Position numbers and translations under genes: made by a program. The notes below the pieces were generated by a model, which ran no database searches, had not been told where the DNA came from, and was given only the letters and a program-made list of their open reading frames with translations. A DNA stretch of 24,000 nucleotides. It comes from Fervidicoccaceae archaeon. GTDB taxonomy: Archaea > Thermoproteota > Thermoprotei_A > Sulfolobales > Fervidicoccaceae. This document shows, in pieces, positions 1-23,552 of the stretch (position 1 is the first letter of the stretch; each line of letters opens with the position of its first letter). Where the stretch lies: positions 17,859 through 41,858 of the forward strand of contig JAVYOA010000004.1 of assembly GCA_038734945.1 (NCBI GenBank), read 5' to 3'.

Positions 1-2
1 GA

Positions 3-14
3 AAAGCTTAAATG
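3..14 (+). promoter_or_regulatory. BRE/TATA-like box for the tRNA-Gln 5' half
   Basis: AAAGCTTAAATG ends about 25 nt upstream of the first tRNA nucleotide (40). This is the usual archaeal TATA-to-start spacing. Confidence 0.4.
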
Positions 15-39
15 ACCTTTTGAGCAGAAAAATATACGA

Positions 40-77
40 AGCCGGGTAGTCTAGCGGCCAAGGATGCGGGGCTCTGG
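40..77 (+). tRNA. tRNA-Gln(CUG) 5' half (positions 1-37 only); split-tRNA half or truncated tRNA gene
   Basis: AGCCGGG-TA-GTCT-AGCGGCCAA-GGAT-G-CGGGG-CUCUGG folds as acceptor 5' strand, D arm, anticodon-stem 5' strand and loop with anticodon CTG (74-76). A1 is typical of archaeal tRNA-Gln. After G37 the sequence is TCCTCCTCCTCAACCCCC. The matching CCCCG strand, a T arm and the CCCGGCT acceptor 3' strand were not seen on either strand of the window. Confidence 0.55.
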
Positions 78-327
78 TCCTCCTCCTCAACCCCCAAGCT
101 CCTACTTGAAGTTTATCTGAGCTCCATCCCTTGAGAGATCTCAATGCATTGAAGTGCAATGAGCTGAGGAGGAAAATTACAGCATAACCTTTTTCTTAAA
201 AGCATCCTAGATTCTCAGCAGCACATGCTTTCATAGCATTACTAAAAAAGAATCATTTTCTATTTTTCAGGGAAAAAAGCAATCAACGGAAAACTTTTTT
301 AAAAAAATAGAACAACAATGCCTTGAG

Positions 328-1317
328 GTGCTTTTGTTGGCAAGGGTCCTTGTGACATTCAAGCTGAATGAGGAATTCAAGGAGATTCTTGAGAGAAGCG
401 GTGAGTCCTTTTCAATTTACTCTGGCTCTGAACCTTTTGAATCCTGGTTCGAGAGGGAAAGCAGGGATGCAGTAGTAGCAATAGTCTTTCCTGGGCAGCC
501 CTTTGGTGAGAAGGAAATCCTTCAATCTCCCAAGCTCAAGCTGATAATTGTTCATGGATCTGGATTGGATAAAGTTGACATAAGGGCAGCATCATCCAGA
601 GGTGTATGCGTAGCCAATGCTCCAGACGAGATAGCTGTGGCTGTTGCTGAGCACTCTCTTGCACTAACCATGGCTGCCTTGAGAAAAATAACTGTTGGAG
701 ACTCCATAATTAGAGAGGGGAAATGGGTTAGGGGAATACAGTCATCTCTCACTGGGAGAAGCATAAAAGCACTCCAGGTAGGAGTGGTCGGGCTGGGAAG
801 AATAGGTTCAGAGGCTGCCAGAATATTCTCCAGCTTGGGAAGCAGAGTGGTCTACTGGGACAGAAGGAGGAAGCCTGAGATAGAGCATGCGCTGGGAATA
901 ACATATGCAGGCCTTGAAGATCTTTTCAAAACATCCGATGTCATCATAGTTTCCATTGCCCTCACAGAGCAGACGAGAAGGATAATTGGAGAGAGGGAAA
1001 TAAACAGCATGAAAAGAGGGGCACTGCTGGTCAATGTCTCCAGAGGCCAAGTCATAGATGAAAGGGCCCTCATAGAGAGGCTCAAAAAGGAAGAAATATA
1101 TGCAGCTCTCGACGTCTTTGAGGAGGAGCCAATTGGAAAAGATCACCCGCTTTCCCAGCTAAGGAACACAGTTCTCACTCCCCATGTCGCTGGTTTCACA
1201 TATGAGGCTCTAAACGGCACAAGTAAGATGGTTATTGAATGGTCCATTGACTTTCTCAGGAAAGGCAAGCTGCCTTATACAGTTGTGAATCTGGAAAGCT
1301 GCTCGTCTAGGCTCTGA
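328..1317 (+). CDS. D-isomer-specific 2-hydroxyacid dehydrogenase (glyoxylate/hydroxypyruvate reductase or PGDH-like)
   Basis: NAD-binding motif VGVVGLGRIGSEAARIF and C-terminal LTPHVAG motif; length typical of the family. The true start is probably the in-frame TTG at 334/337, just after GAGGTG (325-330). Confidence 0.85.
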   Translation: MLLLARVLVTFKLNEEFKEILERSGESFSIYSGSEPFESWFERESRDAVVAIVFPGQPFGEKEILQSPKLKLIIVHGSGLDKVDIRAASSRGVCVANAPDEIAVAVAEHSLALTMAALRKITVGDSIIREGKWVRGIQSSLTGRSIKALQVGVVGLGRIGSEAARIFSSLGSRVVYWDRRRKPEIEHALGITYAGLEDLFKTSDVIIVSIALTEQTRRIIGEREINSMKRGALLVNVSRGQVIDERALIERLKKEEIYAALDVFEEEPIGKDHPLSQLRNTVLTPHVAGFTYEALNGTSKMVIEWSIDFLRKGKLPYTVVNLESCSSRL

Positions 1318-1407
1318 TTTTAAAAAGATCTCATGAACTCGAGGTCATCCTTTGTTCCACCTCTTTTAAACCTAGTGAAGACCATATTTCCTATCAGGGA
1401 CCAAAAA

Positions 1408-2073
1408 ATGTCAGCAATTGATAAGTTCGGCAAGAAGTGGAGTCCACAGGAATCGGAAAACATATTTGATAAGGTGAAGGCAAGGATTGCTCCTCCCCCA
1501 CCTGTTAGATACAGGATCACAATGGCCCTGTTCAAAATAAAGGTTCAGAAGAACAGACTTGAGTACACTCTGAATAAGCTTCAGGAGAGATCCAATTCAC
1601 TCTTCGAAAAGGTAGTGGATGCACAAGTAAAGAAGGACATGGACAGAGCAGCTATGTACGCCTCCGAAGTTGCTGAAGTGAGAAAGGTAGCTAAGACAAT
1701 ACTCAGCTCAATATTTGCTCTTGAGAGAATAGGGCTGAGGCTTGAGACTGTTAGAGATGTTGGAGATCTCGTTTCCGCAATGGGCCCAGTCGTTGGCGTG
1801 GTAAAGGAAGTAAAGCAGAACCTGATGGGAATAATGCCCGAAGTGGCATTCGAGCTAGGAGAAGTAGACGAGATACTGCAGTCCACAGTCACAGAGCTAG
1901 GAGAGTTCACCGGAATACAGATGAGCAACATCTACGTCTCAGAGGAAGCCAAGAAGGTAATGGAGGAAGCATCTGCAATCGCGGAGCAGAGAATGAAGGA
2001 GCAGTTCCCAGAGCTGCCAACTGGAGGCTCTTTGAACCTTCCAGCCCCTCCATCTGCCAATACCAACAAGTAA
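1408..2073 (+). CDS. cdvB: ESCRT-III / Snf7-family cell-division protein (CdvB paralog, no winged-helix tail)
   Basis: Helical protein with blocks remembered from crenarchaeal CdvB paralogs: KF..KW, PP.RYR, LQER...LFEKVV, AAMYA.E.AE.RK, ALE...LRLETV, EA...AEQRMKE.FPELP. The ORF is open from 1333, but a TTTTAAAAAG TATA-like box at 1318-1327 and the N-terminal similarity favour the ATG at 1408. Confidence 0.75.
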   Translation: MSAIDKFGKKWSPQESENIFDKVKARIAPPPPVRYRITMALFKIKVQKNRLEYTLNKLQERSNSLFEKVVDAQVKKDMDRAAMYASEVAEVRKVAKTILSSIFALERIGLRLETVRDVGDLVSAMGPVVGVVKEVKQNLMGIMPEVAFELGEVDEILQSTVTELGEFTGIQMSNIYVSEEAKKVMEEASAIAEQRMKEQFPELPTGGSLNLPAPPSANTNK

Positions 2074-2163: not shown

Positions 2164-3147
2164 ATGATTGAAATGATGAGCACATCTCAGTCCATACATT
2201 CTCCAGCGAAGGGGGAGGATGAAAAGGAGGCCATAATTCTAGGACACTGCATTCTGAACATGAACACAAGGGCACCTGGGATTGCTGTCTGGGAAGGAGG
2301 AATTGTTCCAGTATTGAGAGCGCTGAAGCGCTATTATGGTGAAAAGCATCAATACCCCTGTCTCGAAGCATCTGTTGTTGGCATGAGGAGATGGTGGCAT
2401 GTAAAGGAGCAGTACAATACTTTCACCTTCAGATTTCTCTCTCAGAGGCTTTCCCAGATGTATTCCCATCATTTTCTGAGAAACGGCATAACCAAAGTTA
2501 AAGTCCTCGGCTTGGGCCTCAGTCCAACATGCGGCCTCAGATACACACAGAGCGATCCAACATATGGGGGAAGGCCCAGAGAGATAGATCCCTCAAGAAT
2601 AATAAAGAGGGGAAAGGGCGTTCTCATTGAGGAGATGGACAGCGAGTTCAAGAGGGCTGGACTAGATGCGAGCATCCTCGACGTCTCCCCCTCTTTAATT
2701 TATCCAGAATATGAAGAAAGAATATCGAATGCAGGAGAATACCCAGCAACACCATATGAGGCGCTTGAAGAGATAGAGTCATTCCTAGAAGTCAAGTTAG
2801 CATTCAGGGATGAGGAAATATCCCGCATAAGCTCACTGAAAGAGGACATTCGCTCCAAGAGGACACTGGTCATTCCAAGAAAGCTCCTCGATACACACAT
2901 TGACGCTCTCATTGGATATGCAGAGAGAGGAGTAGGCATAACATTGATAGAGGACATATACGGGAATGAGGAGGAAAGGGAGCTTCTATCGTTCATATAT
3001 GCATCCATGCTGGCAAACATGGTCCTTGCTGATCACAGCATAAGAATAGCTGTTGGAAATGGAGAATCCGATGAGCTTGTTGAGAGCATCATGGAGAAGC
3101 TGGAGGAGTCCAGGATTCTGCAAAAAATCAGCATTAGAAAGATATAG
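2164..3147 (+). CDS. Uncharacterised protein: N-terminal DUF523/TudS-like three-Cys domain plus unknown acidic helical C-terminal domain
   Basis: 327-aa ORF preceded by TATA-like AAATTTATATATTTTT. Cys29 (GHCILNMNTRAPG), Cys66 (YPCLEASVVGMRR) and Cys123 (SPTCG) resemble the three conserved Cys contexts of DUF523. This is remote similarity judged by eye. Confidence 0.6.
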   Translation: MIEMMSTSQSIHSPAKGEDEKEAIILGHCILNMNTRAPGIAVWEGGIVPVLRALKRYYGEKHQYPCLEASVVGMRRWWHVKEQYNTFTFRFLSQRLSQMYSHHFLRNGITKVKVLGLGLSPTCGLRYTQSDPTYGGRPREIDPSRIIKRGKGVLIEEMDSEFKRAGLDASILDVSPSLIYPEYEERISNAGEYPATPYEALEEIESFLEVKLAFRDEEISRISSLKEDIRSKRTLVIPRKLLDTHIDALIGYAERGVGITLIEDIYGNEEERELLSFIYASMLANMVLADHSIRIAVGNGESDELVESIMEKLEESRILQKISIRKI

Positions 3148-4984: not shown

Positions 4985-5075
4985 GCCGCCGTAGCTCAGC
5001 GGGTAGGCCTCATGGGCCCTCAGCGCCAGCCTTGTAAGCTGGTGGTCGCGGGTTCGAGTCCCGCCGGCGGCTCCA
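4985..5075 (+). tRNA. tRNA-Thr(UGU) with a 15-nt non-canonical intron in the D arm and encoded CCA
   Basis: GCCGCCG-TA-GCTC-AGCGGGTA-G[GCCTCATGGGCCCTC]AGC-G-CCAGC-CTTGTAA-GCTGG-TGGTC-GCGGG-TTCGAGT-CCCGC-CGGCGGC-T-CCA. Removing 5007-5021 restores the D stem GCTC/GAGC. The anticodon is TGT. Confidence 0.9.
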
Positions 5076-19459: not shown

Positions 19460-20467
19460 TTGCGTTTCCTGAAGTGCGATCTTTCTAGGCTTCCTCCTCT
19501 AAATGGAAAGAGAGTTGCAGTAATAGGACTTGGACCAGCAGGACTTGGAGCAGTAGGCTCTCTAATATGCAGGGGCTACGAGATAATAGCATATGATGCG
19601 CATCCAGAGCCGGGAGGCCTCCTCATGTTTGGAATTCCAGAGTTCAGAATAAGCAAGAGCAGTGTTAGGGAAGGAGTTAGAGAGCTAACAATGAGCGGGA
19701 GAGTGAGCTTTGTCAGCGGAAAGATGATAGGAAGGGACATTGAGCTGGACGAGGCTGTTGAGGGAAGCGATGCAGCCCTGATAGCGACTGGAACAATAGC
19801 TACGAAGAAAATAGGAATAAACTGCGAGGACTCTCCAGATGTTCTCCCCTCAGTCGAGTGGCTCATAGACTATCACAGACTGAAGCTCGGATACTCTCCA
19901 ATGTACGGCTACACTAGCTCATCTCTTAAGGAGCCAGTCGGCATAATAGGAGGAGGGCTGACAGCAGCAGATGCAGCCCAGGTCTCAGGCTTCGAGCTGA
20001 AGCTAAAAACAAAGATAATCTACAGAAGAAGCAAGGATGTGGCCCCAATGGGAAAGAATGAGGCATTGAGGCTGGAAAGAGGAGGGGTTGAGTTCCTGGA
20101 AAATCTCGCTCCAAAGGAATTCCTCTGTGATTCGGAAAAGAGCCTAAAGGGAGGGATTTTCTACAGAACACAGATCATTGGAAAGGGGAGGGAGGGAAAG
20201 CTTGTATATGGAGAGGAGGCTTTCGTAGACTTCTTTACAGCAATAAATGCAATAGGAGCCAAGCCCACTCCTCCCGAGAACATTGAAAAGCACGGCCTGA
20301 AGTTGAAGGAGGATGGAACAATATATGTCGATGAGAGGGGAATGACAACAAGGGAGAAAATTTTTGCAGCTGGAGACGTTGTAAACGGCCCCTCCAAGAT
20401 AGGTGTAGCACTGAAGAGCGGAATGGATGCTGCTCTAAGCATAGATAGATATCTTTCACAAAAATAG
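19460..20467 (+). CDS. FAD/NAD(P)-dependent oxidoreductase, glutamate synthase small-subunit (GltD/SudA)-like, lacking the N-terminal Fe-S domain
   Basis: VAVIGLGPAGLGA...YDAHPEPGGLLMFGIPEFRISK and C-terminal IFAAGDVVNGPSKIGVALKSGMDAA match the GltD family pattern. TTG start with AAGGGTG 7 nt upstream. Confidence 0.8.
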   Translation: MRFLKCDLSRLPPLNGKRVAVIGLGPAGLGAVGSLICRGYEIIAYDAHPEPGGLLMFGIPEFRISKSSVREGVRELTMSGRVSFVSGKMIGRDIELDEAVEGSDAALIATGTIATKKIGINCEDSPDVLPSVEWLIDYHRLKLGYSPMYGYTSSSLKEPVGIIGGGLTAADAAQVSGFELKLKTKIIYRRSKDVAPMGKNEALRLERGGVEFLENLAPKEFLCDSEKSLKGGIFYRTQIIGKGREGKLVYGEEAFVDFFTAINAIGAKPTPPENIEKHGLKLKEDGTIYVDERGMTTREKIFAAGDVVNGPSKIGVALKSGMDAALSIDRYLSQK

Positions 20468-20492: not shown

Positions 20493-20569
20493 TGGTGGAC
20501 CGGCCGGGACTTGAACCCGGGACCTCTCGGATGCCAACCGAGCGCTCTTCCAGGCTGAGCTACCGGCCC
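20493..20569 (-). tRNA. tRNA-Ala(GGC), intron-less, encoded CCA
   Basis: The reverse complement reads GGGCCGG-TA-GCTC-AGCCTGGAA-GAGC-G-CTCGG-TTGGCAT-CCGAG-AGGTC-CCGGG-TTCAAGT-CCCGG-CCGGTCC-A-CCA. A G3:U70 identity pair is present. Confidence 0.95.
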
Positions 20570-23234: not shown

Positions 23235-23247
23235 AACATAATAAGAA

Positions 23248-23552
23248 GTGCGGGTAGGGCCGGGGGCTCGCCCTCCCCATTTCCGAGGTGGGCGCAAGGC
23301 GGGGCCAGTAATCCCATGGAGGGGGCCGAGGCTGGGGATGAATCCCTGGATAGTGATGAGCTCCGCCCTGTGGGGTCGTGGGAGGAGGCTGGTTGGCTGG
23401 AGGGCCAGCCAGACCTCCCTGACCGAGGGAAACTGGCCAGGCCCGGAAGGGAGCAACCTGTCCTCGGATCACGGCGTTCACAGGTCACCGGAGGGAGCAA
23501 TTCCAGGGGAAGTTCGCCTCAGCGCAGGCTTCCTCCATGGGAAGCCGCATCA
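23248..23552 (+). ncRNA. ffs: Signal recognition particle RNA (archaeal 7S/SRP RNA)
   Basis: A very GC-rich block of about 305 nt contains the universally conserved helix-8 motif CCAGGCCCGGAAGGGAGCAAC. The 5' GCGGG and 3' CCGC ends are complementary, and GGCTGG/CCAGCC forms a helix-6-like hairpin. The many overlapping ORFs here are GC artefacts. End coordinates are accurate to about +/-5 nt. Confidence 0.9.

Follow-up and report, generated by a model that had tools for sequence, protein, structure and literature searches.

The window, that is, the whole 24-kb stretch of Fervidicoccaceae DNA that was analysed, begins in the last codons of a Na+/H+ antiporter gene (562 aa, seen on contig L021), whose stop codon TGA occupies positions 13–15. 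Directly downstream of this gene lies AGCCGGGTAGTCTAGCGGCCAAGGATGCGGGGCTCTGG (40–77), which reads as nucleotides 1–37 of an archaeal tRNA-Gln(CUG). The protein gene beside it encodes a 2-hydroxyacid dehydrogenase, 99% identical to a Fervidicoccaceae MAG protein (contig L021). Within the tRNA segment, U8 and A9 stand between the acceptor 5' strand and the D arm, and G26 joins the D arm to the anticodon stem. The segment terminates at G37 (position 77), and TCCTCCTCCTCAACCCCC (78–95) then follows. The features of the locus are:

1–14, plus strand: BRE/TATA-like box GAAAAGCTTAAATG, predicted promoter of the 5' half, conserved in five lineages
40–77, plus strand: tRNA-Gln(CUG) 5' half, tRNA positions 1–37, assigned from the sequence, its identity in relatives and the joined cloverleaf
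40–46, plus strand: acceptor 5' strand A1–G7, AGCCGGG
49–65, plus strand: D arm, GUCU / AGCGGCCAA / GGAU
67–71, plus strand: anticodon-stem 5' strand, CGGGG
72–77, plus strand: anticodon loop CU-CUG-G (C32 U33, C34 U35 G36, G37), with the anticodon CTG at 74–76
78–95, plus strand: trailer of 18 nt, TCCTCCTCCTCAACCCCC, complement of the 3'-half leader and predicted to be spliced off
96–115, plus strand: non-conserved 3' tail, putative termination zone, with TTTAT at 111–115

An earlier note on this DNA had described the segment as a tRNA-Gln(CUG) 5' half with A1 and the anticodon CTG, ending at G37, and our parse of the sequence confirms that description. The TATA-like box that it had placed at a proper distance upstream is also present. 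The box overlaps the stop codon of the antiporter gene (13–15) and ends 27 nt before A1, close to the spacing seen in the same window at tRNA-Thr and tRNA-Ala, whose TATA-like boxes stop 30 nt and 27 nt short of the mature 5' end, respectively. Alignment showed that T8–G14 is invariant across five lineages. As the box of contig L035 lies about 100 nt past the antiporter stop codon, it is conserved for itself and not as coding sequence. Comparable conserved TATA/BRE-like boxes precede A1 by 26–33 nt and the 3'-half leader described below by about 26 nt, and a near-identical box, GAAAAGCTTTAAAGG, precedes the 3' half of contig L034. We infer that the box at 1–14 is the promoter of the 5' half.

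Searching the window with ARAGORN and with Rfam at the gathering score returned two other tRNAs and the archaeal SRP RNA only. The 5' half was recognised by neither program, and at E ≤ 10 the Rfam search of positions 1–400 gave zero tRNA matches. The tRNA-Thr of the window carries an intron in its D arm. A custom scan of both strands, which looked for a T arm together with a strand pairing with AGCCGGG, yielded no candidate having a T loop, and the flanks of the 5' half, read over 24 kb downstream and 11 kb upstream, contain no 3' half. The statement of the earlier note that the 24 kb hold no partner was thus correct as to the T arm, but CCCGGCT does occur once elsewhere, at 19608–19614 on the minus strand. 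This single copy lies within coding sequence, has no T arm or other tRNA context, and is at chance level (1.5 expected). When the leader GGGGTTGAGGAGG was sought in the window and in contigs L021 and L022, only the complement of the trailer itself was found; a 3' half close by, as in A. pernix and T. aggregans, was therefore rejected. A permuted tRNA gene of the Thermofilum pendens or Cyanidioschyzon merolae type is likewise excluded, since the upstream sequence is the protein-coding antiporter gene and holds no 3' half.

Two downstream elements had been suggested as parts of the same transcript, namely a 9-nt complement of 81–89 at 165–173 and a terminating T-run at 190–195. The complement exists in the window, but its role is improbable: it is missing 3' of the trailer in L022 and L036, and L035 has merely the imperfect TGAGGGAGG. 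Strings of the GGAGG type are enriched window-wide (23 against 5.5 expected). A cis intron formed through 165–173 was rejected because no 3' exon follows the complement and because it is not conserved in relatives. The T-run is not conserved either, and both elements are probably irrelevant. Termination more probably takes place in the zone at 96–115. Alignable sequence ends right behind the trailer core, and the core is directly abutted by TTTATT in L022 and by TTTGTT in L036.

Related contigs allowed us to follow the 5' half through the family. Its 38-nt body is 100% identical in L021, L022, L035, L036, L037 and L040–L045, and the Logan contigs L001, L038 and L046, which keep 27–34 nt of the half at a contig end, are identical to it over this length (L038 breaks off after 27 nt). 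On L022, where the dehydrogenase is 61% identical to that of the window, the same 38 nt again lie just 3' of the antiporter gene, and antiporter homologs of 46–48% identity led to L035, L036/L037 and L038. The box, the 38-nt body and the trailer core are kept in these contigs, whereas the spacers and the sequence past the core are unalignable.

The missing part of the tRNA was sought with two patterns. The first, built on the leader TGAGGAGGAGGA that the earlier note had predicted as the partner of the trailer, was GAGGAGGAGG, N10–40, TTCRA, N7, CCCGGCT, and it was run against species-representative genomes. Of its 19 matches, 18 were bacterial and one came from a haloarchaeal (Natronomonas) MAG; no relative of the present archaeon was among them, and they were taken as chance matches. 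That pattern was wrong, as the true leader departs from a perfect complement opposite 78–81; TGAGGAGGAGGA itself does not exist. The second pattern was taken from the trailer core common to the window and L022 and read TTGAGGAGG, N4–30, CCCCG, N9–11, TTC, N9, CCCGGCT. In a scan of JGI metagenomes it produced five matches, three of which are a genuine 3' half (L023, L025, L026); the remaining two (L024, L027) lie in high-GC coding sequence and were dismissed as chance. A scan of viral contigs for the 5' half gave zero matches.

The 3' half consists of a TATA-like box, then about 26 nt further on a leader, and then the tRNA nucleotides C38 to A73 with an encoded CCA. Its parts follow one another in the order leader, CCCCCG, variable loop, T arm, CCCGGCT, A and CCA. 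In the metagenome contigs the unit reads GGGG(G)TTGAGGAGGCTGGGGAGAT for the leader and CCCCCGCGACCGGGGTTCGAATCCCCGCCCGGCTACCA for the body, and in the species of the window the leader is GGGGGTTGAGGAGGCTGGGGAGAT (24 nt). It sits between xerA and xpf, the gene of an ERCC4 nuclease, and is convergent with xpf. XPF homologs of 57–64% identity led to the 3' half at the equivalent position in further contigs, so that it is now seen beside xpf in four NCBI Fervidicoccaceae MAGs (L028–L031), the JGI contig L034 and the Logan contigs L032 and L033, the last two of which end within it. The leader and the body are 100% identical in three lineages (L023, L028, L034), and two further lineages agree over the ends of the body. 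Where xpf ends, just behind the 3' half, L023 and L034 carry an 11–12-nt inverted copy of the 3' part of the leader, which makes an inverted repeat GGCTGGGGAGAT/ATCTCCCCAGCC. The distant 3' half that had been postulated, with a complementary leader, a T arm and CCCGGCT, is thus present in the same species and in the same assemblies as the 5' half.

Nucleotides 82–95 of the window (CCTCCTCAACCCCC) are the exact reverse complement of leader nucleotides 1–14 (GGGGGTTGAGGAGG) of L028–L031, which belong to the same species. An exact complement of the 14-nt core directly in front of a tRNA-Gln 3' half, together with 38 nt that stay identical between species with diverged flanks, goes far beyond what chance would give. 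The idea that the trailer pairs with a distant leader was therefore right, but the pairing stretch is 82–95 together with 79–80 and not 78–89. A core of 13–14 nt, CCTCCTCAACCCC(C), is invariant in the four lineages with a readable trailer, and the four trailers can be written as T-CC-T-core (window), A-CT-CTC-core (L022), G-CT-A-core (L036) and A-CT-T-core (L035). They differ only at the bulge nucleotide (T/A/G/A), at one G·U-compatible position (C/T) and in an internal loop (T/CTC/A/T). The second and third trailer nucleotides are thus CC or CU, either of which can pair with GG of the leader. As the leader is invariant, compensatory double changes do not occur in the trailer:leader helix, and only one-sided C/U changes or changes at unpaired sites are seen. 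This pattern of variation is the one predicted by a model in which the junction of the two halves folds into a bulge-helix-bulge (BHB) motif. The elements of the model are:

Anticodon stem: C27–G31 paired with C39–G43
Central helix of 4 bp: C32 U33 C34 U35 paired with leader G19 G20 A21 G22, including one G·U
Bulge of 3 nt in the 5' half: G36 G37|U78
Bulge of 3 nt in the 3' half: A23 U24|C38
Helix h' of 2 bp: C79 C80 paired with leader G18 G17
Internal loop: U81 opposite leader C15 U16
Intermolecular helix of 14 bp: window 82–95 with leader 1–14

BHB cuts fall at the equivalent site of each bulge, after its second nucleotide. We examined the motif by cofolding. With the L036 trailer, the minimum free energy (MFE) structure of the mini-duplex contains both 3-nt bulges and the 4-bp central helix. 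With the window trailer, the BHB model has an energy of −48.8 kcal/mol against −49.5 kcal/mol for the unconstrained MFE structure, a gap of 0.7 kcal/mol, and the latter is a register shifted by one nucleotide. The 13–14-bp trailer:leader helix appeared in every cofold, the full-length ones included. Unconstrained cofolds of the full-length transcripts gave no cloverleaf, because the GC-rich sequences offer alternative folds, and for this reason the junction was assessed by folding a mini-duplex and by computing the energy of the model. A BHB at the predicted junction, the presence of which the earlier note had proposed to examine, can therefore form according to the predicted structure, with its 4-bp helix and two 3-nt bulges. 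[quoted passage not shown]

When G37 is joined to C38, a molecule of 76 nt results, identified by ARAGORN as tRNA-Gln(ctg). Pairing is complete in the acceptor, T and anticodon stems, the D stem contains two G·U pairs, and the molecule has A1–U72, A73 and CCA. The A1–U72 pair is a feature of archaeal tRNA-Gln that is recognised by GatDE.

All the above point to a possible route to the mature tRNA. The transcripts of both halves would anneal through the 14-bp trailer:leader helix and through the acceptor and anticodon stems, and annealing would build a canonical hBHBh' motif at the junction. The archaeal splicing endonuclease would then cut after G37 and before C38, and an RtcB-type ligase would join the exons to yield the 76-nt tRNA-Gln(CUG) with A1–U72, A73 and CCA. 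The promoters, the terminator and the steps of cleavage and ligation in this route are inferred from the sequences. The proposal of a trans-spliced tRNA-Gln(CUG) split at 37/38 is in this way supported at the sequence level by the partner, the complementarity, the fit to a BHB and the cloverleaf, and positions 1–95 of the window are very probably the 5'-half gene of a split, trans-spliced tRNA-Gln(CUG) of Fervidicoccaceae.

How far the two halves lie from each other could be estimated in the species of the window. Its antiporter P0129 is present, at 100% identity, on seven contigs, and the exact 56 nt of the window half with its trailer occur in L021 and L040–L045. In GCA_038734195.1 the 5' half is on JAVYOQ010000009.1 (L041, 16.9 kb) and the 3' half on JAVYOQ010000001.1 (L031), at about 260.8 kb of 401 kb. 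At least 140 kb separate the 3' half from either end of its contig, and at least 5.5 kb lie between the 5' half and the end of JAVYOQ010000009.1, which gives a minimum distance of about 146 kb between the halves. In GCA_038878775.1 they are on JAVZVC010000017.1 (L042) and JAVZVC010000002.1 (L028), respectively, and contigs with a 5' half (L038) and with a 3' half (L032) also come from one sample, ERR14373517. All the genomes are MAGs with the halves on different contigs, and their co-residence rests on binning, with which two independent MAGs and the exact complementarity of trailer and leader agree. We conclude from these positions that the two parts of the tRNA are encoded at separate loci, without a cis intron.

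The ends of the Logan contigs tell something about other copies of tRNA-Gln. Logan assemblies use k = 31, and a contig that runs into a repeat stops there after k − 1 = 30 nt. The first 30 nt of the half, and no more, stand at the end of L046, which places the beginning of a repeat at A1, and L001 opens with the final 34 nt of the half, which places the end of the repeat at U33 and the divergence of the copies at wobble position 34. Similarly, L032, L033 and L039 start 30, 28 and 27 nt before the end of the CCA, which implies a second copy of the T arm, the acceptor strand and the CCA. The simplest reading is that the second copy is an ordinary tRNA-Gln(UUG) gene that has these segments in common with the split one. 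The assembly graph of L001 branches at position 34 only and not at 37/38, which argues, indirectly, that this sample contains no intact Gln(CUG) copy sharing the anticodon arm.

Four other explanations of the 5' half were considered. It might be a stand-alone small RNA, for example a regulator resembling a tRNA half, that acts alone and is never ligated. Conservation does indicate a function without telling which one, but a separate cause would then be needed for the 14-nt exact complementarity of trailer and leader, for a BHB geometry that sets both cuts exactly at 37/38, and for two bodies that make a flawless tRNA-Gln cloverleaf. We regard such an RNA as very improbable.

The earlier note had named a truncated tRNA-Gln pseudogene, a functionless relic of a rearrangement or deletion, as the alternative to a split gene. 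That the tRNA finders miss the sequence would suit such a relic, and so would the gene order. Right after the trailer, ThiN follows in L022 and the 2-hydroxyacid dehydrogenase in the window, which means that a rearrangement breakpoint abuts the unit. Against this, the 38 nt are identical, and the box and the 13–14-nt core are kept, where the neighbouring proteins are only 46–61% identical and the sequence beyond the core is unalignable. Nor would decay spare a trailer that matches the leader of a separate and equally conserved 3' half. The conserved half, box and trailer core and the matching partner contradict a relic, and there is scarcely any likelihood left for it. The proteins adjoining either half are only 46–64% identical between lineages, and the identity of the halves beside them indicates that the gene was already split before at least five Fervidicoccaceae lineages diverged, and that purifying selection maintains it in this state.

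Integrative elements of archaea insert at tRNA genes, where partial copies of the gene remain. The 5' half could accordingly be the remnant of an attachment site, that is, a partial tRNA copy left by a mobile element that integrated into a tRNA-Gln gene, and it is true that a tyrosine-recombinase gene adjoins the 3' half and that in L037 the 5' half is followed, after about 600 nt, by a TnpB-like gene. The recombinase, however, matches XerA (NF040815) with 221 bits in L023 and 212 bits in L028, the cut-off being 220, and the placement of xerA beside the 3' half is syntenic across species. These matches and the synteny identify it as the housekeeping XerA and not as a mobile-element integrase. 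Furthermore, neither a second copy of the half nor an intact tRNA-Gln was found within 24 kb on the downstream side and 11 kb on the upstream side, and the half has its own conserved promoter-like box and a trailer matched to the 3' half, so that a remnant of this kind is extremely unlikely. An artefact of assembly or binning, by which a contiguous intron-containing gene or halves from different organisms would be mistaken for a split gene, might be suspected where the genomes are all MAGs and short-read contigs break inside the halves, but it has next to no probability given that the 5' half, the trailer and the differing downstream genes are contiguous in at least seven independent NCBI assemblies as well as in ENA and JGI contigs, that the 3' half, the leader and the upstream xerA are contiguous in at least six assemblies or contigs, and that the window extends 24 kb beyond the half.

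A split tRNA-Gln(CUG) gene, the reading that we prefer, can be compared with the few systems that are known. Split tRNAs have been reported in N. equitans, C. maquilingensis and four Desulfurococcales (PMC3218864 Table 1; PMC4390854). Those of N. equitans are iMet, His, Lys(CUU), Gln(UUG), Glu(CUC) and Glu(UUC) (Randau et al. 2005; PMC3218864 Table 1; PMC4390854), with Gln(UUG) split at 32/33 (PMC3218864 Table 1). The present case resembles them in its widely separated halves, each with a promoter (predicted here), in the GC-rich complementary trailer and leader and in the BHB at the junction; several tRNAs of N. equitans are also split at 37/38, and one is also a tRNA-Gln. That tRNA-Gln, however, is UUG and split at 32/33, while here it is CUG and split at 37/38. 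N. equitans is moreover a DPANN symbiont with a reduced genome and six split tRNAs, whereas a single one was seen here in a Thermoproteota of the free-living type, and the two are not homologous as split events.

Closest in taxonomic neighbourhood are the four Desulfurococcales, whose split tRNAs are Asp(GUC) and Lys(CUU) (PMC3218864 Table 1; PMC4390854). Each of their genomes has a single split tRNA, Asp is divided at the canonical 37/38 site with a BHB, and synteny is rearranged from the tRNA onward. The isoacceptor here, Gln(CUG), is a different one. The halves in Desulfurococcales are adjacent or about 5 kb apart, and their splits were judged recent (at the species or genus level), in contrast to at least about 146 kb here. 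Since both loci are conserved over five lineages whose proteins are 46–64% identical, the Fervidicoccaceae split would be much older than the Desulfurococcales cases.

Caldivirga maquilingensis (Fujishima et al. 2009; PMC4390854) is, like the present organisms, a free-living type of crenarchaeote with dispersed halves joined through a BHB. Many non-canonical tRNA introns occur in it, and a D-arm intron is found in the tRNA-Thr of the Fervidicoccaceae window. It differs in that its split tRNAs are those for Gly, Glu and Ala, that some of the halves are common to isoacceptors and that some of the tRNAs are tri-split, neither of which is seen here. The split gene shares its splice positions, its BHB geometry and its presumed enzymes (EndA and RtcB) with an ordinary archaeal tRNA that has an intron at 37/38, and the trailer and leader look like a long intron hairpin opened at the loop, each being one arm. 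The difference is that the "intron arms" here come from separate loci and transcripts, each with a promoter-like box. On these comparisons, the split Gln(CUG) is predicted to work exactly like the split tRNAs with a 37/38 junction. The open-access literature that we searched contained no split tRNA-Gln(CUG) and no split tRNA in Fervidicoccales, and there is no mention of such a case in the tRNAscan-SE 2.0 paper.

The split tRNA-Gln(CUG) would add a new order, Fervidicoccales, and a new isoacceptor to the rare split tRNA genes. Much of the debate about the origin of tRNA genes, as halves from the outset or as whole genes broken afterwards, centres on them. A dispersed split that is kept in several lineages would offer natural replicates of the evolution of a trailer against a frozen leader. 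As ARAGORN and the Rfam tRNA model miss both halves, these genomes would otherwise seem to be without tRNA-Gln(CUG).

A wider reading may be put forward tentatively, although we consider it doubtful as a whole. The split may be ancient and fixed across Fervidicoccaceae as the sole source of tRNA-Gln(CUG), with the halves more than 100 kb apart through speciation and the 24-nt leader frozen at 100% identity. The repeat GGCTGGGGAGAT could in that case be the trace, still preserved, of a rearrangement by which an intron-containing ancestor was broken, or else a functional hairpin that cages the 3' half. If this were true, the Fervidicoccaceae tRNA would be the first one, apart from those of Nanoarchaeota and Caldivirga, whose split has the age and the breadth of sampling needed for comparative tests of how and why tRNA genes become divided.

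Comparison of the window with L022, another Fervidicoccaceae genome with an identical 5' half, showed that the shared gene order stops exactly past the trailer (L022 18831-19100 versus window 96-334). The next gene after the trailer is ThiN in L022 and a 2-hydroxyacid dehydrogenase in the window, and the two genomes show rearrangement of the blocks holding ThiN, the antiporter and tRNA-Gly(UCC). Near the breakpoint region in the lineage of L037, an ENA contig carrying the 5' half, lies a mobile-element gene:

L037 2665-3117, minus strand: Cas12f1-like/TnpB fragment of 150 aa (PF07282), about 600 nt downstream of the 5' half

Two further ORFs of the window are both kept beside the dehydrogenase in relatives:

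Window 1333-2073, plus strand: 246-aa ORF, matched only weakly to Snf7/ESCRT-III and under the cut-off (E=2e-4)
Window 2164-3147, plus strand: 327-aa ORF, next after the 246-aa ORF

The NCBI version of the first has 221 aa, with the start placed later; a search for a Pfam match to the second gave none.

In the 3' half of the JGI contigs L023 and L034, the leader's 3' portion, GGCTGGGGAGAT, recurs as a perfect inverted copy of 11-12 nt about 10 nt beyond the CCA, so that the whole 3' exon is enclosed between the two arms:

L023 8806-8817 and 8866-8877: inverted repeat arms
L034 1266-1276 and 1327-1337: inverted repeat arms

The distal arm is formed by the final codons (A-G-E-M-stop) of the convergent gene xpf. 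The repeat is degraded in L028, the 3'-half contig of the window's own species. The repeat may be a trace left by the rearrangement that split the gene, may form a hairpin, or may reflect two conserved sequences that happen to coincide.

An earlier note had pointed out window 165-173 as a 9-nt complement of window 81-89. TGAGGAGGAGGA-type strings with at most two mismatches occur 23 times in the whole window against 5.5 expected, an excess consistent with purine-rich codons for Glu and Gly and with sequences of the ribosome-binding type. It leaves the complement at 165-173 unremarkable.

Three other RNA genes were found in the window:

4985-5075, plus strand: tRNA-Thr(UGU), non-canonical D-arm intron, CCA encoded
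20493-20569, minus strand: tRNA-Ala(GGC), CCA encoded, TATA-like box 27 nt upstream
23247-23551, plus strand: archaeal SRP RNA (Rfam RF01857, 150.6 bits)

ARAGORN labelled the first tRNA-Met(cat) and placed its anticodon at position 27. The gene is in fact a tRNA-Thr(UGU) with a non-canonical D-arm intron of about 15 nt, GCCTCATGGGCCCTC, and this CAT sits within the insert; ARAGORN calls the intron-free version tRNA-Thr(tgt).

Several Logan short-read contigs start or end within the 5' half (L001, L038, L046) or the 3' half (L032, L033, L039), at offsets of 27-34 nt. These offsets fit k=31 graph branches from a second locus with the same A1-U33, T arm, acceptor strand and CCA, which is presumably a tRNA-Gln(UUG) departing from the halves at wobble position 34.
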